Source of the DNA: Squalus acanthias
Lineage: Eukaryota
Assembly: GCA_030390025.1 (NCBI GenBank)
Contig: CM059432.1
Coordinates: forward strand, 33,792,001 to 33,856,000
Direction of reading: 5' to 3'
Length of the DNA: 64,000 nt
Shown: positions 36,953 through 53,373 of the stretch, piece after piece
Position numbering within the stretch: position 1 is the stretch's first letter
How the letters are laid out: every line of letters starts with the position of its first letter
Program-made: the position numbers and the translations under genes
The notes under the pieces: generated by a model
What the model was told of the DNA's origin: nothing
Database searches by the model: none
What the model saw: only the letters and a program-made list of their open reading frames with translations

Positions 36953-38044
36953 TGTAAGGGGTGACCTGCGGCTCTGTGCTTAGCCTGGGTGCTAGTGCGA
37001 GGTTAGGCCTTGTTGCCTGTTCTGGTCTCCAGCCAGCCTGGTAACACTAGACACCTGTGAGTGGTTCGACCCACTCGCCCTTACGGTTCTGTCACTGGAC
37101 TTAGGTGCGAGAGCAATAATGCAGAGAAAAACTCAGGTAGACCCGGTCGAATAGTGCGAAATGGAAAATCTTTATTGCATATTATTCAAGATTACGAGAT
37201 ACATGTCATAAGCACAGATTAATGACAGTACAATCTTACACACAGTTATGTAACTAATTTTAGGGAAACGAGGAGCGCATGACACATCGTAAAAAGGGAC
37301 ACACATTATACTTATCCTTAAAACTTAAACCCTCCCCTATCAATACCTGTCCTAATCTAGATTTGTAGGATCGAGACTCATGCTCACCACTCGTGATAAC
37401 TCGGAGAATTCCGAAACTCTGCTCGGATGTTTTTACCGCAGCACCTGACTATCCACGTGCTGATCAGGGGTCTCTGTACCCCACTTGTTTACTCGTTTCT
37501 GCTCCGGCTAGCAGGCTGGACCGTCTGCTGTCATGAAGATCTGTGTTGTCCTCGGAGTTCCGATACTACTCGAAAAAGAGTCTTCCTGTGCCCTCACCAG
37601 TTTGTAAAATTCAAAGAAAGGTCTTCCTGGGCAAGGAAGTGTTTATTCGACTTACAGGCGCGGTCGGGGCTTACTGACCGTGGCGATGCGTATTGTCGTC
37701 TTCTTCTCTTCTCATCTCATCTCATCTCCTCGGTACAATAGCCCTTATTCTCACCTGGGAGACCGATTCCAGTATTTATGTATAAAATGCAAACCCATCA
37801 TGTCTTGTGAATTATCTCAAATGTGCTGAGTCCTGTACGATCTTGCACAAATGTTTATTGGAACGCCATCTTGTCTGCCCATTGAAAGTCTAGAACCTTC
37901 TGCCACGAGGCGTGGCGGCCATTTTACAGGCTGTTTGTGTCCGCTTTGAAACCTGACAGCATTCTGCTGAAATAAAGCTGTTTGTACGAAACTTTATGTC
38001 TCCTTCTTATTTTATAAAATCGCGATAATTTTGCGAATTCTACA
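36953..38044 (-). repeat. ERV 3' LTR (1092 bp; lacks 559 bp present in the 5' LTR)
   Basis: Colinear with 51723-53373 except for 52502-53060; about 4 substitutions counted by eye. Confidence 0.95.
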
Positions 38045-38055
38045 GTCCCTCCTGT
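38045..38055 (-). promoter_or_regulatory. ERV polypurine tract
   Basis: Minus strand ACAGGAGGGAC immediately precedes TGTAG of the 3' LTR. Confidence 0.75.
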
Positions 38056-38904
38056 TGATGCGAATAACTCCGCTTATCGTATCAAAAATATTGTGGTGAG
38101 CAATATTATCTCGATTCTCCACATCCAAAAATTCCCATAACTTAAAACTATCTAGGGTCTCCGTGTCGTCCTTATTTCCCAGGAAAACTACATTCTTATA
38201 ACACCATAGGAAGCATTTGCCTTTAACTTACACCGCGTGTATTTCCTTCCAGGTGTAACCAGGCCGATGCCTCTCGCACCACCTGCATATGCATATTTTT
38301 TTATTCAAAGAAAAAAGAAAACAAAAACCAACCAAACAATCATATTCAACAACACCAAATCAAATTAATCAAAACCAACTCTTAAACATGTAGGGGTAAA
38401 AATTCAGTTGGTTGCGCCTCCCGTTAGCGCCTTAAATGGGCGCTAATGGGGCGTTAAGGCGCTAACGCCCGGGCGCAGCGCTGTTTGCGCCGCTCGAGAA
38501 CTTAACTTGAGATTGTGCGGCGGCGCTAAAACTTACCGCTGCGACCACCTGCGCGCGCAGATTGTGACGTCAGTCCGTGGTGCAACGCCCTTGGGGCGCC
38601 CCGGAGCGGAAATTGAGTGGCGCCCCCTGCCTTACCGCCTGGCGCTTCCAACGACCGGAAGACTGGAACGTTATCAATCGGTCTGGGGCTGGGGGGGGCG
38701 CTATTTAAAGGGGGCCTCTTCCTGTCTTTTTCTGTGGTCGACATTTATGCACCACTCGTTCTGAGAGAGAGAGAGAGATTCGGAGAGAGAGAGAGAGAGA
38801 CTTCTACATTGACTCAACGCTTTGTGAGGTAGTTTTGCCTAGTTCATCCTAACTTTGCTGCTACTTTCGTTGCTGTACCTCATTACTTTTCTGGCAAAGA
38901 GAAG

Positions 38905-40065
38905 ATGGGGGCTGCAATGATTGGGGGCGTCGTCCTGCTCCAGCTCAATCGGAGCAGAGTGAGACGCAGACAGAGAGTGGCAATGATGGCCAGACGGAGG
39001 AGGCCCATCAGGCGCATGTACAGGAGAGCTTACCCTCCCAGGGTATATCGTGAACAGCTCTCCTACATCCACATGTCCGAGGAGCTGTGTTTGCGAAGGC
39101 TGCGATTCAGCAAGGAGGTGGTCACTGAGCTCTGCCACCTGCTGCAGCCAGATCTGCAGCCTCAGCTGAGGTCCAGGACGTCTCTGTCGGTGGCAGTGAA
39201 GGTCACAGTGGCCTTGAACTTCTACGCCACTGGCTCATTCCAAGCTGCTGTTGGGGACCTCGCCAATATCTCCCAGTTTGCGGTGCATCGCTGCATCCGG
39301 CAGGTCACCAATGCCCTCTTCACAAGGAGACGAGACTTCATCTCCTTCCCTATGACCCCAGACAAGCAGCATGACCGTGCTATGGGCTTTGCGAGGGTAG
39401 CGGGCTTCCCCATGGTGCAGGGCGCCATTGACTGCACGCATGTGGCTTTGCGTGCTCCGCGAGAGAATGCAGAGGAGTTCCGGAACAGAAAGGGGTTCCA
39501 TTCCTTGAATGTGCAGTTGGTCTGTGACCACAGACAGGTGATTCTCGCTGTCAATGCCCACTATCCGGGCAGCTGCCACGATGCTTTCATCCTGCGCCAG
39601 AGTACTGTGGCAGAAATTTTCGAGGCACCGCATCAGCCAGTTGGTTGGCTTCTGGGGGACAAGGGGTACGCATTGAGCACCTGGCTGATGACACCGCTCC
39701 GTACGCCAAACACCCCTGCTGAGCTGCGGTACCAGGAAAGCCAACAAGCAACGAGGAACATTATTGAGCGCACAATCGGCGTGCTCAAACAACGATTCCG
39801 CTGTCTGGACCATTCCGGAGGAGCCCTGCAGTACTCGCCTGAGCAAGTTTCCAAATTCGTAGTGGTGTGCTGCATGTTGCACAACATGGCAATCCTCAGG
39901 ACGCAGCCAATGCCACCAGGCCTTGCAGCACCACAAGAGGAGGAGGAGGAAGAGGAGGAACAGGCCGAGGACGATGATCAGCAGCAGCACCAAGGCAGGA
40001 GGGCGGCCCACAATGGTCAAACTGCAAGGGCCGTCCGTCAACGACTAATAGCAAGCCGCTTCTAG
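38905..40065 (+). CDS. Harbinger DDE transposase (HARBI1-like), intact 386 aa
   Basis: [55 protein letters not shown] motifs; no stops. Confidence 0.96.
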   Translation: MGAAMIGGVVLLQLNRSRVRRRQRVAMMARRRRPIRRMYRRAYPPRVYREQLSYIHMSEELCLRRLRFSKEVVTELCHLLQPDLQPQLRSRTSLSVAVKVTVALNFYATGSFQAAVGDLANISQFAVHRCIRQVTNALFTRRRDFISFPMTPDKQHDRAMGFARVAGFPMVQGAIDCTHVALRAPRENAEEFRNRKGFHSLNVQLVCDHRQVILAVNAHYPGSCHDAFILRQSTVAEIFEAPHQPVGWLLGDKGYALSTWLMTPLRTPNTPAELRYQESQQATRNIIERTIGVLKQRFRCLDHSGGALQYSPEQVSKFVVVCCMLHNMAILRTQPMPPGLAAPQEEEEEEEEQAEDDDQQQHQGRRAAHNGQTARAVRQRLIASRF

Positions 40066-40359
40066 GGCCCCTGCCAGTGCTACAAACACGAATCAACCCA
40101 GCACGCAACCCCTAAGCCGGCCAAGGCACCAATAATTCCAACCACCAGCCATGTATATTTTGAATACAGAAACTTATTTATTGTACAAACTCTGTGTGTG
40201 TCAATTCCTCATGACAAACTCATAGAAATAAACACAAAAAAACAGTCAATAACATAACTGGTTCTCACAACCTGGAGATAATGTCCAAAACACTAAACAA
40301 AAGTTGGGCCATGAACCTCGGCCTTTAATAAAAAAATGACCAGCATTTTGGCACACCTC

Positions 40360-42323
40360 CTACTTTTTGCCCTTCGAGGGTGATCTCCTTCCCTTGCGCA
40401 CTTCCCCCCTTCTAACCCTACTGCTCCTCCGTAATGGGACCTCAGTGGCTGCAGCAAGGCTGGTGGAAGGCTGCTGCTTGTCACACCCTGACACTGCAGA
40501 TGCCCCTGAAGGACGGCCTCGACCACTTCTGGGCCTGGAGGGCCCGGCTGCAGACTGCACCAACTCTGCATGGGCGGCAGCAGTCTGTCCTACAGGCGGT
40601 GGCAAGTGCAGTGGAGAAGTGACAGTGTTGGCAGCAGGAATGCTGTCATCGTGAGAGAGGACAGCAACTCCCTGCTCGCCCGACACACTGGCACTCCCAC
40701 GGGGCAGCACTTCAGCATCCGGAGCAATTTGCCTGAGAACAGATTGCTGGCCTGCTGCGGCGCGGTGACAGCCCCGGGGACATGTGCACGAACCATCGAG
40801 GATGGCAGCAGTCAGTGCTCGCGTGGCCTCAATCTGAGTCTGCATGAGAGCAGGCTCAGATGGGTTCCTGGCAGCCAGTGACTGAATTGCAGCAGTAAGC
40901 TTTAGTGTGGCATCCGCCTGTGCTACAGCGAAGTGCTCCACACTCCTTGCCAGTGCCTCAATGCATTCGGGCACCCTTCCCACTGCACCCATGAGCTCAG
41001 TGTGCATGACCACCGCCTGGCTGTTCATTTCTGCAATCAGCCGCTCCTCCTCTGCGTCCATTGCATTAGGAGTGTCTGGCATACTCTCCCTCTGGGGAGA
41101 AGGCTCCCGTTCTTCCCTCCCCCCCCCATGGCGTTGCTGCAGCCCGCTGGGTCCTGGAACTTCACCATCATCAGCCCCTTCCCCCCTGCTCCCCCGTTCT
41201 TCCCTCCCCCCCCCATGGCGTTGCTGCAGCCCGCTGGGTCCTGGAACTTCACCATCATCAGCCCCTTCCCCCCTGCTCCCCTCCGGGGAAGGCGTGTTCC
41301 CAGTGTGGCCATGGGCTTCCTCGGGAGAGGGTGGCACTGATGCTCCGGCTTCCTCTTCCTCCTCAGCTGCAGCATCACTCCCAGTGGCAGCTTCAGGGAC
41401 CATCTCCTCAGCTGGTGAATCACCATCTGAAAGCAGGGAGGTACAAGAGTGGCTTTAGCGTGAGGACAGGGTGGCAGTAAGGGAGGAATAAGTGCAGCGA
41501 GTTAGCAAGTTGGATTGAAAGTGTCAAAGGCTGGTATTGTGAGGGACAAGTGGAAGGACAGAGGACAAAAAGGTGATGACCTTACCATTGCTGTCCACAA
41601 CGGGGTCGGCGTCTCCAGTGGCGACGGGACCGATCACCCGGCTTGCCACAATCCTGTGGACGCGCTCCTCCAGATCGCTGAGGGGTTGCAGCTGAAGCCG
41701 CCCTCCACCCGTCCGTTGCTGCTGTCTCCGATTATGAGCCAGCTTAGCCTGCAAGAAAAAGGACAGCATCTGAGTCAATATACAGCCATGGTCTTGCCTG
41801 ATGTGCCTCCCATAGGTGAATAGCCCTTACAATATGCAGCCATGGTCTTGCCTGATGTGCCTCCCATAGGTGAATAGCCCTTACTGTATGCAGCCATGGT
41901 CTTGCCTGATGTGCCTCCTATAGGTGAATAGCCCTTACTGTATGCAAAGTGTGGAATGTGTGTGTGTGTTTGATGAAAGGGCCATAGGTGTTGGATGAGT
42001 GTTGTGCATTGGGGTTTTAAGACCCTCTGGCCATAGAGTGAGGTTGAGATGGAGGGATGGAGAGGTATTGAGAAAAAGCCACTCACCCTGACGACCCGAG
42101 TGAGGTCGTTGAACTTTTTGCGGCACTGGACATGGGTCCTGGGCACCATGCTCCTGGAGGAGACGCTCTGAGCCACCTCCCTCCACACTCTTCTGAACTC
42201 GCGTGGCAAAGGCCTCCTGCCACTCTCTGGGAACAGCATGCATCGTCTGCGCTCCACTGCGTCAACCAGAGCATCCAAGGCCCGCTCGGTGAAGCGATGA
42301 GCGCGTTCTCTCACCCTCTCCAT
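40360..42323 (-). CDS. Harbinger Myb/SANT-like DNA-binding protein, 3 exons (42323-42087, 41748-41586, 41426-40360), ~488 aa
   Basis: RFTERALDALV..WREVA..RTHVQCRKKFNDL trihelix motif; GT-AG introns with matching phases (0 and 1) give an uninterrupted frame. Confidence 0.88.
41104..41281. repeat. Tandem 87-bp in-frame duplication in Myb-like exon 3
   Basis: GSRGEGADDGEVPGPSGLQQRHGGGREER occurs twice. Confidence 0.9.
41778..41946. repeat. ~54-bp x3 tandem repeat in Myb-like intron 1
   Basis: cagccatggtcttgcctgatgtgcctcccataggtgaatagcccttac repeated three times. Confidence 0.92.
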
Positions 42324-42781
42324 GCTTGGCAGCAAAATGGATTACAGGTCTCTCCAGGCTGAGATTCAAGGCTGCAATGAGCAGGGTGTGGCTGGGGAGC
42401 AAGTGGCCCCCCCCGCTTTAAGAAGTGTCCGGCGCCAGTGTGTCTGTGTTCCCTCGCTAACTGGCAGCAGCTGCGCTGCGCTCGTGCGCTGAGTTAGCGC
42501 CTCACTCCTAGGCCTTTGCGCCTTAAGAGAGGTGTGCAGCGCCTAATTTAGCGCTCCACTCACCTCCCGGGGCGGTAAAAGTGAAGTTTCCTGTCAGTGC
42601 CGATAATTAGCGCCAGGCGCTAATATTTGCGCGCGGACGATATTTGCGCCCCAAATGGGGCGCGACCTAATTTCTACCCCGTAGAGTTCCAAACTTAATT
42701 ACAGTTTCTGAGAAAAATCACGATCGATTACAACACTTCCGAGACGCACGTGGAAAACTGGAGTGACGCCATTTTGTCTGT

Positions 42782-45292
42782 TTACGCGGTGCTTTCATTG
42801 TGCACGCGCACGTAACGTTCTCGCCACTCTCCCGTGTTTTCGTTCTTGGTGAGGCGTTTGCCTCTCTTACAATGCACGACCAATAAGTATATCACAATAA
42901 ACACTTGGCATACAACTAAAATGTGGGAGGCTATTCTAATCCAGGAAGGCACTTCAATGTTGGTGAACAGATTCCACCACGGTGGAATTACTATGTCCAG
43001 AATTTCTGTCCCTATCTCGACAGTCTTTTGTTCTAGGGTGTAAAAATGTTTTTGCGATACCGCGACGGCTTTCAAAAGCTTGGTGAGGTGTTCAGGGAGA
43101 GGGGGAATGAGGTATCCGAAATGCGCGACGAATCGCTGCAGGTCGGTGAAGTTCTCTTTTACTGTGAGATGAACCGTGGATGGTTCAGGGATCGGGACAA
43201 TTCGCTGTTGTGCTACTTGAACTTCCGCCCTGGGTTTGAAACAGAAACTGCTGTCACTCACCGGACACCGGCTACGGTTTCCATGTTGGTAGTGTTGCGC
43301 TGCAGTGGTAACACAATATGTTCCACCCCCGATGTATGCTACCTGCGGAGGCACATGATCTTGTGCCATTGCCTCCATGGTGCAATTCATGGGCTTGGCG
43401 CCAGCCGTTCTGAACCCGCACTGTGGTGTTAAAAAGGCATTCAAGTGCTGGGGACACAGTATTATGTGTGCTCCCCGGCCACGACAACCAGAGAGATCTG
43501 TACCTGTCATCGTTTGCTCCCAGCGGATGACGTAAGGTGGAACCGCTGCATAGCGAATGTGGGCTCCCCCATGAATGACACCAATGTTCTCTACCCGGTA
43601 CACCGGGGCGGGCTTTGCTGTGTCGCCCAAAACCGGCATACGTAATACTATACCCATGATGGTATGGTTTGATCGTCCGCAGTCCACGGGGACTGGGTAT
43701 GCTTCTGAAGCTAGTCTGAGCTGGCACGGGTTTAATGCGTTCTGAAAAGGGTGGAGCGCCTGCAGGTGTTTGTTACTTATCCAGGACGGGACCAAACCTT
43801 GTTTTAAATCCTCCAAATTACTGCGGCCCTCGCCCAGTAACCACGCCCCGTAAAGCACGCACACCTCATTCTGCGCAGCCTGATCGGACGCATTCCGATC
43901 TTCCCTAATCAGGGCATTTACCGTACGCGCATGTTTCTCTAGTTCAGCTATTATTTCTTTTAAATGGAGAGTCATGGCCTGGTCCTCGTGTAACCCAGAC
44001 CCAACCACCTTATTTTCATCTGTGAGGATGTTCTTCAATTGTGTTTTTAAGCCATTAATCTGGGTCTGCAGCTCCACGCTGTCTAGAGCGTTGACCACAG
44101 ATGTACCTGTATTGAAAGCAGTGAACATGTCGTTCACAACACCCCTTCTTTGCCTCCCCACCTGATCCAAAACTTCATGTGGTGCGGTGTACAAACTTGT
44201 TTTATCAATTTCCGCGAAATCGAACTCATAAAATTGTCTAAACATCTTGGTCAACAGGACCTGATATAACTGTTCCGTCTTTTTGGGGCACCACTCTGGT
44301 AACCGCACCTCGGTGAGATTTAAAATCACCGAGGCCACCGCGTAATGTACCCCCTGAAATAGTATCTGGTCTGTGGGGACCAGTACCAAACCATTCCCGG
44401 GTCCCTTACTGGTTTTAGGGCACCCTTCTTCCTTGGCTAGAACCACCGGAATCGTGGGCGGGGCTTTGCGTGGGCGCGTAATGAGTTCAGTGGCATTTAC
44501 CGGGATCAGAGAGTATGGGGCTCCGCACCCACTGGTGCTCGCATCCCACCTCATCCCCTGTCCGTTATCCTGCCATTGATTGATGAAAAATATGGAGATG
44601 CCTTTGGGGCAAACGTGCTTTGACCCCCACATACATACATAAATTCCCTCATCCGGTTCCCACCATTTGTCCCAACAGACTTTCAATTGTCCGTTAGTCC
44701 CCATAATTGTCCGATGGGTATTGTTACCCAACCGCTCCCACTCGACCGAGGAGTTTCTCATATTCTTGCTTAACTTTCGTAGCCACCACCATCGGCTCAA
44801 TAGGACATTCCCATTACAAGTCAAACAAATCCGTTTGCCGACGGTGACGCTGACTCTGGGTGCGATGATCCTCACTTTGGGGCACATTAAAGAAGTCTCT
44901 TTGTAGGCAAAACCCGATGTACTGGAATACTCAGTTGAATTCGTTCCCAGCCATCCTGGCCACTTTCCCTTGTGGAAATAGGTGGTGGTCTCCTCAGCCT
45001 CTCGCCTTCCGGTCCCATCCACCGCGATGGGGGCCGTGTCCCCGGAGCATCCAAACACCACGACATCCTTGGTGCGGCCTCGATAGGCCAATCCACATCC
45101 GATTGCCGCGAGCAATACTAGAATTCGTTCCATCCTTCCTTGGTTCCTGTGATCAGATAGAATGAGGTAGCCAGCCTCCCAAGAGTCTCTGGCTTTTGTG
45201 AAGGGTGAGCGGGTCCCCTGACCTCGCCTCTCGTAAGAAGACATGTGCGCTGGATAGACTTTAACTATTCCTATCTCTAAAACTCCCATCAT
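42782..45292 (-). CDS. env: Envelope glycoprotein (class I fusogen, F-like); probable true start Met at 45133
   Basis: Signal peptide MERILVLLAAIGCGLA, furin site RQRR then GVVNDMFTAFNTG fusion-peptide-like stretch, heptad repeat, Cys-rich region, TM ILVVCQVFIVIYLLVV, short tail; ORF fully open. Confidence 0.92.
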   Translation of the reverse strand: MMGVLEIGIVKVYPAHMSSYERRGQGTRSPFTKARDSWEAGYLILSDHRNQGRMERILVLLAAIGCGLAYRGRTKDVVVFGCSGDTAPIAVDGTGRREAEETTTYFHKGKWPGWLGTNSTEYSSTSGFAYKETSLMCPKVRIIAPRVSVTVGKRICLTCNGNVLLSRWWWLRKLSKNMRNSSVEWERLGNNTHRTIMGTNGQLKVCWDKWWEPDEGIYVCMWGSKHVCPKGISIFFINQWQDNGQGMRWDASTSGCGAPYSLIPVNATELITRPRKAPPTIPVVLAKEEGCPKTSKGPGNGLVLVPTDQILFQGVHYAVASVILNLTEVRLPEWCPKKTEQLYQVLLTKMFRQFYEFDFAEIDKTSLYTAPHEVLDQVGRQRRGVVNDMFTAFNTGTSVVNALDSVELQTQINGLKTQLKNILTDENKVVGSGLHEDQAMTLHLKEIIAELEKHARTVNALIREDRNASDQAAQNEVCVLYGAWLLGEGRSNLEDLKQGLVPSWISNKHLQALHPFQNALNPCQLRLASEAYPVPVDCGRSNHTIMGIVLRMPVLGDTAKPAPVYRVENIGVIHGGAHIRYAAVPPYVIRWEQTMTGTDLSGCRGRGAHIILCPQHLNAFLTPQCGFRTAGAKPMNCTMEAMAQDHVPPQVAYIGGGTYCVTTAAQHYQHGNRSRCPVSDSSFCFKPRAEVQVAQQRIVPIPEPSTVHLTVKENFTDLQRFVAHFGYLIPPLPEHLTKLLKAVAVSQKHFYTLEQKTVEIGTEILDIVIPPWWNLFTNIEVPSWIRIASHILVVCQVFIVIYLLVVHCKRGKRLTKNENTGEWRERYVRVHNESTA

Positions 45293-45424
45293 TTTACCTC
45301 TTTCTGTTAAAAACCTTAAACTACAAACTTAACCTGATTTAAGAACTATAAACTTGAACTTACAAAACTTATCAACTTATCACTTATCTTATAACTGTAC
45401 AGTGCCGCCCGTTCCCAGGGCGGC

Positions 45425-48400
45425 CTACTCAAATTCTGCGGTTGCCGCCGCAGGCTTCTCCCAATGGGGGGGGGGGGCACTGACCCCTCCCTTTGATCTG
45501 CCGCAGCCTGTCGCTGCTGCGCTGGGGCTGGGATCTCCCTGAGCTGCCTTGACCTTGAACTTACGTCTGGGGACATATGGGGGACTTACCCAAATCTTTC
45601 TGGGCTGGGGTTTCCGACTTGACCTACGGAGAACTACCGGGGGCAGGAACTCCAGGACTGACGGACCGGGTTTTGAGACTTCCAGCGTGGTGACCCGTGG
45701 TCCCACCACAGTCGCTGGCTCCGCCTCCCCTGACTCCGCCTCCCTGAACTCGGGATCTGCAGCTTGTGGCACCGCCCTACTTGGCCCAGTAGGCGGCCCT
45801 TCACTCGCAGTCCCTACCTCCCTCGAGGGCAAGACGTTCAAGGCGGGCGGCTCGGGCTCTGAGGCTTCCATCGCCACGCCCTGTGGTCCCACCACAGCGG
45901 CTGGCTCCGCCTCCCCTAGCTCCGCCCCCCTGCGTTCGGGACCTGCAGCTTCGGCCTCCACCCTTTGTGGATCTCTATCTGTCTCCCCTATACCTGAATC
46001 GGGGGCGACCCTTTCGTCCTCCGATTCCAGCTCCTCCTCGCTTGTGTGACTATCTTCGTTGAGCTCCTCGAGCTCTTCCTCATCTGACTCCCAACCCAAA
46101 TAAAGGATCCTACATTTTTCTAGGATGTCCTCTCCCCTAACGCAAGCTGCTTTGCCTGCCTGTGTGCCCTGTGGCCCTACCTGGGGCTGCGAATCCCCAC
46201 TCGCAGGTTTGGCCCCTGTGGTAGGCCCTTGTGCACCCGGCTTATACAGTTTGCACTGATTTACGTGGAACCACTTAGTGCGCCGAGGTACCTTTACGGC
46301 GTATACCATGGGACTCGCCTTATCTACAATGCTGTAGGGTCCCATATACAGTGGTTCCAGACTCCCTACTCTGGCGTAGTTTCTGACCATGACCTGGTCT
46401 CCTACTTCCCACTCCCGCTTTTTGCGGGGTTCCAGCAACAGGCGATTGCCCTGATGCTGCCTTCCCATGTTCCCAGCCGCCTGCTCATAAACCTGCTTCA
46501 GGTGCTCCAAGAGGGTCTGGACGAACTTGTCCCTGCTTACCTCTTGGAGCTGACCCTCAGTGAGCACCGGCGCTAGCACATGGGTGGGGGTTCGCATGAT
46601 CCTCCCAGTCATCACCTCGTGCGGGGAATACCCCGTACTTTTCGACTGACTGGCCCGGACCCCCATGAGGACTAAAGGCAGAACCTCCGCCCATTTTTGG
46701 GGCGAGTTCATAGTCTCTTTCCTCAATTTCTCCTTCAGGGTCCGGTTCATGCGTTCAACAATCCCGGATGACTGGGGATTGTGCGCTACGTGCCATTTCC
46801 CTTCAATGCCCAAAAGCATGAGGGTGTTCTGCATCACCTGGCCGGTGAAATGACTCCCTTGGTCTGACTCCACAAAACGGGGAAGTCCCCACCGCGAGAA
46901 CACTTCCTGGACCAAGATTTTTGCAGTACCCAGTGCCGTAGCTGTTCTACAGGGGAAGGCTTCCACCCATTTGGAAAACACATCCACCAAGACGAGGCAG
47001 TATTTATAGCCTCCCTGGGTGGTGGGCAGGGGCCCTATATAGTCGATCTGTATTGACTGCCATGGTCCCTCTACCCTCCTGATGTGCCCCATGGGCACTT
47101 TCCTTTTCTGGGGGTCTGGGTTGTTTGCAGCGCACACGAGACAGCTTGCACAGAACTCGCGGACCTGCTCCCTGAACCCCGGCCACCATCCCGCTTGCTC
47201 TACCCGTTGCCAGGTAACCTCGGGCCCGGGGTGCCCTGCCCCAGGTCCCTCATGAGCCAACTGGAGGAATTCCCTCCTGTGCTGCTGCGGCACAACCCAC
47301 TGCTCCTCGCGGAACAGCATGCCTTCCTTAACGGAGAGGGTTGCCGTACTGTACGGACCCTCTACCTGCTTCCCCTCAGCAATGGTTCTGAGAACTGCTT
47401 TTAGGGCGGGATCCTGATTCTGGACGGTCTTAAGGTCTAGGGGCAATGCTACCCTGGTGTTCCCGGAATTCCCGTCCCTGCCTTGGATCGCTGCCACGGG
47501 TCTGGGCCCATAGGGGTCCCAGAAAGTGCCGTTACGGGCACCCTCCCTGGCTAGCGCATCCGCCTGCTGGTTGCCTTCCCCACGGGGCTCTGTGGTGGAG
47601 TGAGCCTTCACCTTATGGATGAAAATCTCCCCTTCCTCCCTTACTGCTGCTAGGATCTTTTCCAGCAAGGGCTTCACCGTTAAAGGTCGTCCGTCCGCGG
47701 AGGTGTATCCACGGCGGGACCAAATGGCCAGGTATTCCGTACACGAATTGCATGTGAACATACTGTCCGAGCAAATCGTGTATGGTGTTGGGAAAGTTTC
47801 TGGGTGGGTAACGACGTACACCACTGCAGACAGCTCCGCCTGCTGCGCGCTCATGGTGCTGGGGAGCTTAATCGCCAGGGCAAGGTTTGCCGCAGGGTCA
47901 TAAACTCCGCACCCTGTGAGTCGTTCGCCAGCGGACACTGTGCTGGAACCATCAACATAAATCTCGCGCCCAGTGGGATGTATCCCGGCCCGCAAACCTA
48001 TGTTGACTTCCCACACCCCTTCCACCGAACACTGGTGGGCTGTACCGGGGTATACCAAATTGGCCGCAAGCCTGGGCTCGCAAAGACCTTTAATTCTAAG
48101 ATCCATCTGGGAAAGGAGAAGGGTCCAGCGCGCAATTCACACGCTGCTTACGGTCCCATCCTTAATCCTCCCATCTAGAAGCATCTTAGTTGGTGTGTGA
48201 TGGGTGAGGAGAGTGATGGGAGAGAGCCCTGTGAAGATTGCTGATCTTTTCACAGACCAATGCGTGGCTAAAAGGTGCCTTTCGCAATTGGAGAAACTTC
48301 TCTCCACATCCGTTAACACCCTGGACGAATAGACAACCGGCCTCAGCTTGCCGTAACGCTCTTGGAGCAGCACAGCGCTCAAGCTGTCCCCGCTGGCAGC

Positions 48401-49912
48401 TACCTCCAGGAAAAACTCCTTCCCCCCATCTATGGCCCCTAAAGCTGGCGCGGTCTGCAAATCCCTTTTTAACTTCTCGAAGGCTGCCTGGCAGCCCTCG
48501 TCCCAAGACCACTCCACTCCCTTATGGAGGAGTCGGAGCAGCGGCGCCGCTGTGGCCGCATAGTCTTCGATAAAATCCCTGCAGTAACCGGTCAGTCCCA
48601 AAAAGGACCTCACACCCCTTATGGTGTTGGGAATCGGTAACTCTTGCACCGACTCCCTCCTAGCCTTATCTATGGCTCTTTCCCCAGCGCGAATGGTCAG
48701 CCCCAGGAATTTTACTTCCTGCTGACCGATACGTGCTTTCTTAGGGTTCACTTTAAAACCCTTTCTCGCTAGCAGCTCCAATAACTCGGCCAGCAGTGGT
48801 CCATGCTCCTCCCTTGAGTCCGTAAATAGGAGCAAATCATCCACGTACTGCACTATCTGATTGGGCTGACTAAACTCCTTTAAACTTCCTGCCATACACT
48901 GATGGAAAATACTGGGGCTGTTGTGGAAACCCTGTGGCAGACAGTTCCATGTGTACTGTTGTCCTTTGAAAGTAAAGGCAAACTTGTACTGGTCCTCTCG
49001 CCGCAGCGGGATGGACCAAAAACCGTTCGAGATATCCAGCACCGTGAACGTGGTCGCGGACGCTGGGATACTCCCTATTAGGTCAGCAACTGCTGCTACC
49101 GTGGGCGCGCAGGCGGGAATGTTACTGTTAAGGACTCTGTAGTCCACCGTGGCCCTCCACAAATTATCCGGCTTCCTAACCGGCCATAATGGGGAGTTCA
49201 CGTGTGTGGCTATCGGCCTCAACACGCCCTGCTGCACCAAGGAGGACATTGCTGTCTCCATATCGGGTTCTGCTTCTTTGGGGAAGTTATACTGCTTTTG
49301 GGGCCGGGTCATGGGGTCCCCATCTACGCTGACCTCAAACCCGGTAACCCTCCCACAATCGTGCTTGTGGGTTGCAAACGCGTGCATATTATCTGACACG
49401 TACGTTTGCATGTCCGTTGGGACATCCGCGACCATAAGCCCGAGGTCGTAGCCTCTGGATGGCTTCATGGTACACAGGGCCCCTTTACCTTCCTCCTCCG
49501 GGATTACCACTACCTCGCCTTTTCCACCCTTAGCTCCCCAGAGACAGTGATTCCTGAGGTCCACGAGGATCCCGTGCCCCGATAGGAGGTCTGATCCGAG
49601 GATGCCTCTCCCACCCCCCTCTTGCCATTTCATCAGTATGCACTTCCACGTGGTGTGGAGTGCTCCTAAATGAATGGATAGCGGAATGGAGAACGCGCCA
49701 GCCTGCTCTTTTCCCGTGAACCCCGCTAATGTGTATGGGACCTTGGTAGATAGCGGTGAGTCAAAAGGGCTATCCGTATGAATCACGGTGCATGAAGCTC
49801 CCGTGTCCAACAAATAACTACCCTTCTGTTTCGCTACCTCCATCTCCACCAGGGGTCGCTTCCACGCATCATAGCTGAGCGGACACAAGTAGACGGGCTG
49901 TGCGGGCTCTAG
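45425..49912 (-). pseudogene. pol: Pro-Pol: protease, RT, degenerate RNase H (tether), RNase H, integrase with long tail; one in-frame TGA at 48137-48139
   Basis: LLDTGAS, LPQGFHNSP, YVDDLL, FFLEVAAS (tether), YVDGSS/AQQAEL/SDS/GNQQAD, HHCC + IDYIGP/SDQG/IVERMN; ORFs 48137-49888 and 45425-48106 share a frame. Confidence 0.94.
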
Positions 49913-51718
49913 TCATTGGGTACTATTGGACGGGGCTGCGGCATCTGCGGGGCCGGTAGCAACTGCCACCCTTCCATGCGAAATCATGAGGGTGCGCATG
50001 GCTCCCAACATTGATTCGATCGTATCTGGATGGATAGGTGCACTAGCTCCCCTATCGGAGACAGGCGCCTGGGCTCGGACTGCGGGATTTTTATCCCTGG
50101 ACTCCTTCCAAGGGTTCCTGCAGTTCTTGCGCCAATGCCCTGTCTTCCCACACCCGTAACAAGCATTACTGGCCTGCGGGGCGCGATTTCCCTCCTGATG
50201 CTACTCCTTTTGAGCCGGGGCTGTGGGCCGCGCCTCATGCACCTTTCCCTTAAGGGGACGTGCTCCCGTACTCCTGGTATTACGGTACCCTACCGTGAGT
50301 CGATTTAGGACCGACTCCTCTGTAGTGGCGGGGTTAGTGGGATCAAACCACGCTTTGGCCTGCTCCCTGACGGCTGGCAAACTGTTGGCTACTATACACC
50401 TGAGCCAATGAGTTAAACCGACGCCGTCCAAATAGGCACGCGCTGGTGCGCCTGGGCAGCTACGCTGGTATACTGGCCACAGCCTGTCGGCGAAAACCTT
50501 CGGGGGTTCTCCCTCCATCTGCACTGTTTGTCCCAATCTAACGAACGGACCTTCATCGTCCGCTCCCAACACTTCCAGGACCTCGTCCCTCAATTCCCCA
50601 TAGGTATTATTTCCCCTCTTGCTCTCGTCTGAGAGACACTGAAGGATCGAGCTGTCTAATGAGAACAACAGCATTTTTGCTTTTTCCCCATCGTCGCAGC
50701 CGTTAATGGCTGCGGTTTGCTCTACCTCCCTGAAATGTACGGAAGGGTCGTCTGACTCGGCCAGCTTCCGTACGTGACTGATCATAACCCTCAGCTGGTG
50801 TGAGCTGTGAGGCAACACAAGCTGGTTGAGGAGATCCCCCTGTGCCCCACCGTCTCTGTTCGGGCCCCTCTTGATACCCGTGACCGGACACAACGGTCCC
50901 GGCTTCACTTCTACCTCAGTGGGCTCTTCCTCTACTTCTACCACTTCCTTCCTCACCCAGGTTGCCGAATAGCTGGGTGGCGCGGAGGGCACAGTGGCAA
51001 ATACCTCCTCTGCTTTGTTCGGTGGGGATTTCTGAAATTCCTCACCCACCAGCGGCTGGTGTGCTGACGGGCTGATAAGGCACACCATGCCGTGCGCTTT
51101 ATTCAGGGCCTTTTTAAGGTTCCCTATCTCTCTTTGGCAGACGCTGTGATCGGCCCCCTGATGTTTATCCTCGAGGGCCATCTTATATGCCGCCCTAACC
51201 CCCGTTAAGCTCTCTTCCTGGGCTTTTATTTGGGCAGCTAGGCGGGCACATCGTTTCTTTATTCTGCCCTCATTTAACTTTGCCTCAGTGACCTGGCACT
51301 CGAGGTAATCTATTTTCGCCTCATGGTGGTTGGCGACTAATTGGCGTTCTTGATGCAACGCATTTAAAGACGCGATGAGCTGCTGCCCCCCCGCGACCTT
51401 CTCGTCCATTTCCACCTCTAAACCCTTGATCTGAGCTGCCTGCGCTAAGATGACCTGGTCCGAAATTTGGACTTGTCTTTTATAGCACATCAGCCAGACC
51501 GCTTTCTCTACTGTTCTTTTATGTTCCTTGCTATCTGTCCACCTCACGGCTGCCTCTAGTGGACGCTTATCCACCAGCAGGTCACTTATCCATTTCTTAG
51601 TCAAATTCACTTTTCCAAACACATAATCTGCTATTCTCTCTTCCATGACATTTCGCCCATTCATACCAGGGTCTAACACATCATTTTCTCGCTGCCAGTG
51701 TCCCTTCGTGGTCGCCAT
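49913..51718 (-). pseudogene. gag: Gag (coiled coil, late domains, capsid, CCHC knuckle); premature TAG at 50201-50203, natural TGA at 49913-49915
   Basis: 505-aa ORF continues in frame past the TAG into CYGCGKTGHWRKNC; PSAPPSY and PTAP motifs. Confidence 0.9.
51700..51717 (-). promoter_or_regulatory. Primer binding site complementary to tRNA-Arg 3' end
   Basis: TGGCGACCACGAAGGGAC, 5 nt inside the 5' LTR boundary; matches the vertebrate tRNA-Arg(TCG) 3' end GTCCCTTCGTGGTCG-CCA as I recall it. Confidence 0.8.
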
Positions 51719-51722
51719 TATC

Positions 51723-53373
51723 TGTAAGGGGTGACCTGCGGCTCTGTGCTTAGCCTGGGTGCTAGTGCGAGGTTAGGCCTTGTTGCCTGTTCTGGTCTCC
51801 AGCCAGCCTGGTAACACTAGACACCTGTGAGTGGTTCGACCCACTCGCCCTTACGGTTCTGACACTGGACTTAGGTGCGAGAGCAATAATGCAGAGAAAA
51901 ACTCAGGTAGACCCGGTCGAATAGTGCGAAATGGAAAATCTTTATTGCATATTATTCAAGATTACGAGATACATGTCATAAGCACAGATTAATGACAGTA
52001 CAATCTTACACACAGTTATGTAACTAATTTTAGGGAAACGAGGAGCGCATGACACATCGTAAAAAGGGACACACATTATACTTATCCTTAAAACTTAAAC
52101 CCTCCCCTATCAATACCTGTCCTAATCTAGATTTGTAGGATCGAGACTCATGCTCACCACTCGTGATAACTCGGAGAATTCCGAAACTCTGCTCGGATGT
52201 TTTTACCGCAGCACCTGACTATCCACGTGCTGATCAGGGGTCTCTGTACCCCACTTGTTTACTCGTTTCTGCTCCGACTAGCAGGCTGGACCGTCTGCTG
52301 TCATGAAGATCTGTGTTGTCCTCGGAGTTCCGATACTACTCGAAAAAGAGTCTTCCTGTGCCCTCACCAGTTTGTAAAATTCAAAGAAAGGTCTTCCTGG
52401 GCAAGGAAGTGTTTATTCGACTTACAGGCACGGTCGGGGCTTACTGACCGTGGCGATGCGTATTGTCGTCTTCTTCTCTTCTCATCTCATCTCATCTCCT
52501 CTCGGGGCTTCGGTTCCAACACCGTTTACCGACTTTTCGGGATGGTGCGCCCGTTTCAAGGCCTCACAGCCCAGTTCTACACAGATCTTCGCGGCAAGCC
52601 ACAAGGTTGATCCTAGCGGATCAGAGTCCAGAGCCGTCAGGCAAGAGAATAAAAGTTCAACAGTCTTCCAGCGAGTCAAAACAGCAAGTGCAAGAAGAAG
52701 CAGAGACAGCAGTCAGCAGCAAGAGTAGCAAGCGAAGAGAGAGAGATGGACGGTTGTACCTTACAGTTATAGTGCTGTAATTCCTCTTTTCCCGCCCAAT
52801 CTTAATGTCTATCTTTTGTCAGGATTTTGGTGCTCAAACTTCTTGTATAGGGTGATCTCCGTTTTTAATGAGTTTCGGTGATACTTGTAACTGTCTGAGT
52901 ACCCGTTAATACTTCTCCCATTGTGGAACCGGCTAGTAGTCTCCCTGGTGGGGTTTGGGGGCTTCCAAATGCTTGCTGTGAGTACCCATGAATGGCTCTC
53001 TCATCGTAGAGCCGTGGGGATTTTGCATATTAATGTCTTTGGATGGGTCCTTGATCGCTCGGTACAATAGCCCTTATTCTCACCTGGGAGACCGATTCCA
53101 GTATTTATGTATAAAATGCAAACCCATCATGTCTTGTGAATTATCTCAAATGTGCTGAGTCCTGTACGATCTTGCACAAATGTTTATTGGAACGCCATCT
53201 TGTCTCCCCATTGAAAGTCTAGAACCTTCTGCCACGAGGCGTGGCGGCCATTTTACAGGCTGTTTGTGTCCGCTTTGAAACCTGACAGCATTCTGCTGAA
53301 ATAAAGCTGTTTGTACGAAACTTTATGTCTCCTTCTTATTTTATAAAATCGCGATAATTTTGCGAATTCTACA
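51723..53373 (-). repeat. ERV 5' LTR (1651 bp)
   Basis: TG..CA ends; candidate CCAAT/GC box at 52791-52800, TATAA at ~52768-52772, AATAAA at ~52412 and ~51941 (minus). Confidence 0.95.

Follow-up and report, generated by a model that had tools for sequence, protein, structure and literature searches.

A likely immunoglobulin V-type domain in front of a predicted F-like fusion core in the Env of a young shark endogenous retrovirus

Paramyxoviruses encode a separate attachment protein, and F-type fusogens normally depend on one. To our knowledge, the F2 subunits of paramyxovirus/pneumovirus and baculovirus/errantivirus F proteins carry no N-terminal immunoglobulin (Ig) domain. Retroviral Envs of the gamma type follow a different plan. 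According to the available text of Hotzel (bioRxiv 10.1101/2024.03.17.585361), the receptor-binding domain (RBD-C) of MLV, FeLV and Env-Pb1 is a modified IgV, Env-Dbi has captured a SIRP-derived IgV, and in all of them an N-terminal IgV is followed by a linker and the SU core; the IgV is found in some gamma-type lineages and is swapped or absent in others. A sequence-only reading of the locus analysed here had held that retroviral SU does not normally include an Ig fold, which these Envs contradict. Lokiretrovirus (loki) Env, in the accessible part of Wang and Han (PMC7947760), is an F-related class I protein with a signal peptide, an RXK/RR site, a coiled coil and a transmembrane segment. Among 21 visible N-termini (of 23 Envs), 20 start at the core, without a front module, and one is truncated.

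Here we describe an Env in which an Ig V-type domain likely precedes a core predicted to fold like paramyxovirus F. The earlier worry that such a domain might be universal in loki Envs, which would have lowered the novelty, did not hold for these N-termini. In a literature search (subscription journals and bioRxiv supplements lay outside it), we found no description of a retroviral Env of F type that bears an Ig domain. A term search gave no occurrence of "immunoglobulin" in the available text of PMC13524379, PMC9040795, PMC13709493 and PMC10699275; the accessible parts of PMC12193657 contain no mention of such an Env, and no mention of Ig was seen in those of PMC7947760. A term search of the available text of the Hotzel preprint found nothing on fish, sharks, lokiretroviruses or paramyxoviruses. 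What appears new is the combination of an F-type Env with a layout like that of Ig-type RBDs; both parts are known separately, and the conceptual precedent is close.

The provirus and its affinities

The window, a 64,000-nucleotide stretch of Squalus acanthias contig CM059432.1 (assembly GCA_030390025.1, positions 33,792,001 to 33,856,000, forward strand), contained the following features (positions are those of the window).

36953-53373, minus strand: provirus carrying env
51723..53373, minus strand: 5' LTR, with TG...CA ends and a GTAA target duplication
51700..51717, minus strand: primer-binding site, complementary to host tRNA-Arg(TCG)
45425..51772, minus strand: gag-pol region (Gag, zinc knuckle, PR, RT, tether, RNase H, IN), single frame with three stops
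42782..45133, minus strand: env ORF, 783 aa, ATG at 45133
45086..45133, minus strand: likely signal peptide, residues 1-16, from sequence; helix 2-16 in the model
44885..45085, minus strand: N-terminal stretch, residues 17-83, conserved in the shark/skate lineage; pLDDT <50
44579..44884, minus strand: Ig-like (V-type) domain, Env residues 84-185, with Cys106, Trp115-117 and D161-x-G-x-Y-x-C167
44423..44578, minus strand: linker, residues 186-237, Pro-rich at its end; pLDDT mostly <50
44156..44422, minus strand: F2-like core, residues 238-326, starting CPKTSKGPGNGLVL; pLDDT mostly 85-95
44144..44155, minus strand: RQRR furin-type cleavage motif, residues 327-330
42947..44143, minus strand: F1-like ectodomain (putative fusion peptide, long helices at 333-444, Cys-rich beta region, helix 679-711)
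42872..42946, minus strand: transmembrane segment by hydropathy, residues ~730-754, followed by a 29-aa tail
38394..42680, no strand assigned: Harbinger/PIF-type DNA transposon piece (DDE_Tnp_4, E=8e-38)
36953..38044, minus strand: 3' LTR, ~556 bp shorter than the 5' LTR

Gag and pol lay in one frame, with stops at 50203-50201, 49915-49913 and 48139-48137, and env was open. In the frames upstream of env, Pfam detected PR, RT, tether, RNase H and IN. The tail of the integrase frame (45425-46300) was long, acidic and Pro/Ala/Glu-rich, with an internal repeat spaced 186 bp. The two LTRs, compared in two pieces, were 99.6-99.7% identical; the ~556 bp missing from the 3' LTR correspond to 52502-53057 of the 5' LTR and were largely kept in the 3' LTRs of other copies. 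The Harbinger/PIF piece, located between env and the 3' LTR, was present in this copy and absent from 3/3 other copies, so it was inserted into an already existing young provirus. It contained a 410-aa DDE transposase frame (38833-40065, plus strand) and, by eye, minus-strand pieces of Myb-like type. The stretches tested showed no terminal inverted repeats.

The locus had been taken for lokiretroviral. The Env does have the relationship to Mononegavirales F by which lokiretroviruses are recognized (Foldseek, Atlas). The RT, however, lacks the loki signature by eye: it reads LPQGFHNSPSIF, as in snakehead retrovirus (SnRV) and canonical retroviruses, whereas the loki RTs available for comparison read C/T-PFGY-x-NSPAEF. 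Several further motifs, also judged by eye, were shared with SnRV. In a tree of 121 RT rows, a set with no named loki or SnRV reference, the window RT grouped with RTs of frog and coelacanth elements, its nearest relatives, and apart from the large clade read as gamma/epsilon-like. The primer-binding site of the window fits host tRNA-Arg(TCG), and a tRNA-Arg primer is ascribed to SnRV. SnRV-like endogenous retroviruses (ERVs), which form clade Huo in PMC6001957 and correspond to elephant-shark lineage I of PMC4422223, have been reported in elephant shark and coelacanth, in the accessible parts of PMC4422223, PMC4977317 and PMC6001957. RT motifs, tree placement, primer-binding site and these reports together point to a probably SnRV-like element whose Env core resembles that of loki. 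In the available text of PMC7947760, lokiretroviral elements were found in 0/6 cartilaginous-fish genomes, among them that of bamboo shark, the source of the Env relative P0013. SnRV, in the part of its description available, differs in being a complex virus that has accessory ORFs, and its Env tail has 136 residues, against 29 here. Matches to RT_RNaseH_2 and RNase_H (tether plus second RNase H) are common to all retroviruses, and the "NYNRIN-like" database names among relatives also attach to unrelated ERVs.

The Ig-like domain and the fusion core

The Ig-like motif first noticed in the env ORF is real. The domain has the B-strand Cys, the C-strand Trp and the D-x-G-x-Y-x-C signature, a combination reached by 0/20,000 shuffled sequences. 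Further cysteines are located at residues 84, 103, 153 and 175, N-glycosylation sequons at residues 127 and 137, and three extra cysteines were invariant in 6/6 aligned sequences. A Pfam check proposed earlier did return Ig_3, at 13.6 bits (17-19 bits in relatives), which is below the curated cut-off of 30. The best weak structure and profile matches were immune or adhesion IgV domains (CRTAM, TREM-1, TREM-2, CD8a). The CRTAM alignment was in register at the positions of strands B, C, E, F and G; taken together, these matches were generic (9-18% identity, Z ties within 1). A PDB search with the untrimmed Ig alignment gave no Ig match, whole-Env sequence searches of Pfam and PDB gave no match, and a 39-sequence Env profile gave weak, unrelated matches only. 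The full-length model (39-row alignment, mean pLDDT 62) was poor over the N-terminal 235 residues and placed a helix at 112-126. Scores were sub-threshold throughout, and the V-type reading comes from the agreement of five methods on the same superfamily. One candidate was rejected: P0047 matched residues 21-89 (E=6.5e-6) by chance, being a 5,014-aa bacterial-type repeat protein in which 16 weak repeats were summed.

The model was confident over residues ~240-312 and 400-650. Its best Foldseek match was hPIV3 F (E=3.9e-10), followed by RSV, henipavirus and NDV F; there were 231 matches at E<=0.001 and, among the matches listed, all were paramyxovirus or pneumovirus F. Atlas assigned residues 238-720 to Baculo_F (0.93) and Fusion_gly (0.91). 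The predicted fold of this region is shared with paramyxovirus/pneumovirus and baculovirus/errantivirus F at 9-15% identity, and Pfam PF00523 had no match in the window Env. The core is therefore predicted from the model to fold like paramyxovirus F, and the proposal of an Ig-like domain and an F-type fusogen in one ORF is borne out to the extent of these matches. CPKTSKGPGNGLVL marks the point at which loki Envs and domain-less relatives start their mature chain; the loki core begins, by eye and in the available text of PMC7947760, with a similar GPxxG(I/V)xL motif. The peptide after RQRR330 was mildly hydrophobic (<1.4 hydropathy in 19-residue windows).

In BFVD, the Env model matched lispivirus, baculovirus and paramyxovirus F and also feline foamy virus Env, together with the predicted epsilonretrovirus Envs of WEHV-1 (E=3e-11) and WDSV (E=1.4e-9). 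An F-type Env on a non-loki backbone is therefore not unique, as far as these predicted structures go. SnRV Env was not among the 50 BFVD matches listed, which carries no weight either way. A fish filovirus glycoprotein and abalone and ranid herpesvirus proteins were also matched.

The N-terminal slot among relatives and the age of the domain

A representative search gave 50 related proteins, of which 18 were read whole and 49 scanned with Pfam. Their common core begins C-P-x(6-8)-G-L/I, and what stands before it varies. The same Ig precedes the core in shark and skate relatives of the window Env. Pfam Ig matches were obtained for 2/49 relatives, P0010 and P0034. Ig-like motifs were seen by eye in a second shark group (P0013 and L024, L027 and L031 of the same genome as the window) and in the frog proteins P0021 and P0049; the segments of L024, L027 and L031 matched no Ig family. 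The UniRef automatic name of bamboo-shark P0013 is "Ig-like domain-containing protein", with no mention of its Env nature. Residues ~14-130 of P0034 matched V-set (E=0.0015); this domain is more host-like, lacks the B-F cysteines and presumably resembles CD2/CEACAM N-domains, and P0034 is the best candidate for a separate Ig capture. P0012 (Mustelus), P0023 (Pristiophorus) and P0031 carry a Cys-rich module without a Pfam match (residues ~20-150) in place of the Ig. In P0035 and coelacanth P0051 the signal peptide is followed directly by the core. Judged from these two sequences and the loki N-termini, the front Ig is dispensable for an F-type Env as such.

In a core tree (IQ-TREE, 14 rows picked for a readable N-terminus), the window lineage was sister to the Cys-rich, non-Ig lineage (100/99) and Ig-bearing P0034 was sister to domain-less P0035 (97/93); P0049 and P0051 formed long branches. 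Profile-profile tests among the three Ig-like groups gave no significant match, so that one old capture with losses and replacement and several captures both fit. When a profile was used to look for Envs at greater distance, the four matches were all Mantella-type proteins. The cluster of P0049 contained 16 related Envs of Mantella aurantiaca (90% cluster, most of 677 aa), annotated as uncharacterized host genes, which suggests that this frog has a young ERV family of like layout.

Searched with the Ig stretch, the 3.7-Gb genome yielded, as a rough count, 5,528 candidates at first look, and all 150 that were scored were 94-100% identical copies. The element is a young, high-copy shark endogenous retrovirus, and its abundance makes the family a sizeable share of host genome history. 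C106, W117, D161, G163, Y165 and C167 were retained in 19/19 young copies, a biased set since these were the top-scoring ones. Against 6/6 older loci of the same genome, the Ig domain had a dN of 0.235-0.306 with saturated synonymous sites; dN was 0.13-0.27 for the F2-like core (four usable older loci) and 0.10-0.16 for F1 (three usable). The nearest named proteins are from skate and sawshark, whose elements have the Ig domain. Between the window Env and skate Env, identity was 72/102 residues in the Ig domain and 68/89 in the F2-like core, and 51/67 of residues 17-83 were identical in skate P0002. From the saturation, the skate identity and the six residues kept in young copies, we conclude that the Ig domain is old, maintained and under purifying selection, and not a recent capture.

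The domain had been described as captured and host-like, which finds no support here: it is old and conserved across shark and skate elements, and no host donor gene was identified (best E=0.004), nor any host protein matching the Ig stretch among the 50 matches of the representative search; Env-Dbi, in the available text on it, differs in having a clear donor. Among 14 runs, none was recorded as an RNA source; the contigs of three runs covered all 30 bins, which is uninformative on transcription.

Possible functions of the Ig-like domain

Relatives have another module at this place, or lack one; we therefore favour, at roughly an even chance, the reading that the Env of this probably SnRV-like ERV has a predicted F-type core preceded by a likely Ig V-type domain as an exchangeable attachment module. 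The modular attachment role suggested earlier is plausible from the variable N-terminal slot, and no separate attachment gene besides env was found in this provirus. The precursor would lose its signal peptide and be cut at RQRR330, and the front subunit (residues 17-330: N-terminal module, Ig, Pro-rich linker and F2-like core) would remain on the F1-like trimer. Each spike would then display three Ig domains on flexible linkers. Binding of the Ig to a cell-surface protein, plausibly another Ig-superfamily (IgSF) member, would concentrate the virus and let the F core refold and fuse. The module would thereby stand in for the attachment gene that paramyxoviruses encode separately, and the layout would repeat, with a different fusogen, the RBD-linker-core order of gammaretroviral SU, the gamma-type IgV being joined to a gamma-type SU/TM in the accessible descriptions.

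Rather unlikely is a structural role, in which the Ig would act as a cap, spacer or glycan shield, stabilising the prefusion trimer or positioning residues 17-83 as the true binder. The sequons and invariant extra cysteines would suit such a role, as would the similar conservation of Ig and F2-like core and the co-occurrence of residues 17-83, but loki Envs, P0035 and P0051 do without a front module, and sister lineages swap in an unrelated one, which suits a part that sets specificity more than it suits a scaffold. Poxviruses and herpesviruses are known to carry IgSF mimics, and the weak matches of the domain are to immune or adhesion IgV. A decoy or mimic for shark leukocyte Ig-superfamily receptors, acting from the virion or the infected-cell surface, is nevertheless improbable: the matches are generic, position and linker fit the RBD plan, and the provirus has no other attachment gene. 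Still less probable is a beta-rich module of another fold that matches the motif by convergence; sub-threshold scores, an unusual Trp-rich E-F region and the modelled helix at 112-126 would be expected of it, yet the five methods converge on one superfamily, the CRTAM alignment is in register and the shuffles never reached the motif. The possibility that this ERV family recently captured an exon from a shark gene, for which Env-Dbi and SIRP offer a precedent (in the available text), is largely refuted by the lack of a fitting host protein among the 50 matches, by the 150 same-genome matches that were all copies, and by the saturated synonymous sites between families with the Ig, which skate and sawshark elements also have.

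An Ig before an F core would link two designs, F-type fusogens and gamma-type Ig RBDs, and relatives with other modules or none would form a natural comparative series for attachment-fusion coupling in class I proteins. It would also bear on the origin of retroviral Env, an open question for which Wang and Han outline four scenarios in the accessible part of PMC7947760. More tentatively, and with considerable doubt, these proteins may represent a broad, overlooked vertebrate Env class (shark, skate, frog, coelacanth) in which an F-type fusogen has a plug-in slot, filled several times independently by host-derived Igs and once by a Cys-rich module, the Igs setting receptor use through IgSF adhesion mimicry. 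If so, retroviruses would have arrived at an Ig-type RBD a second time, independently, here joined to fusion machinery of paramyxovirus type.

The same genome also contained more divergent Env lineages (L021-L032), 33-80% identical to bamboo-shark P0013, some of them with an Ig-like motif of their own.
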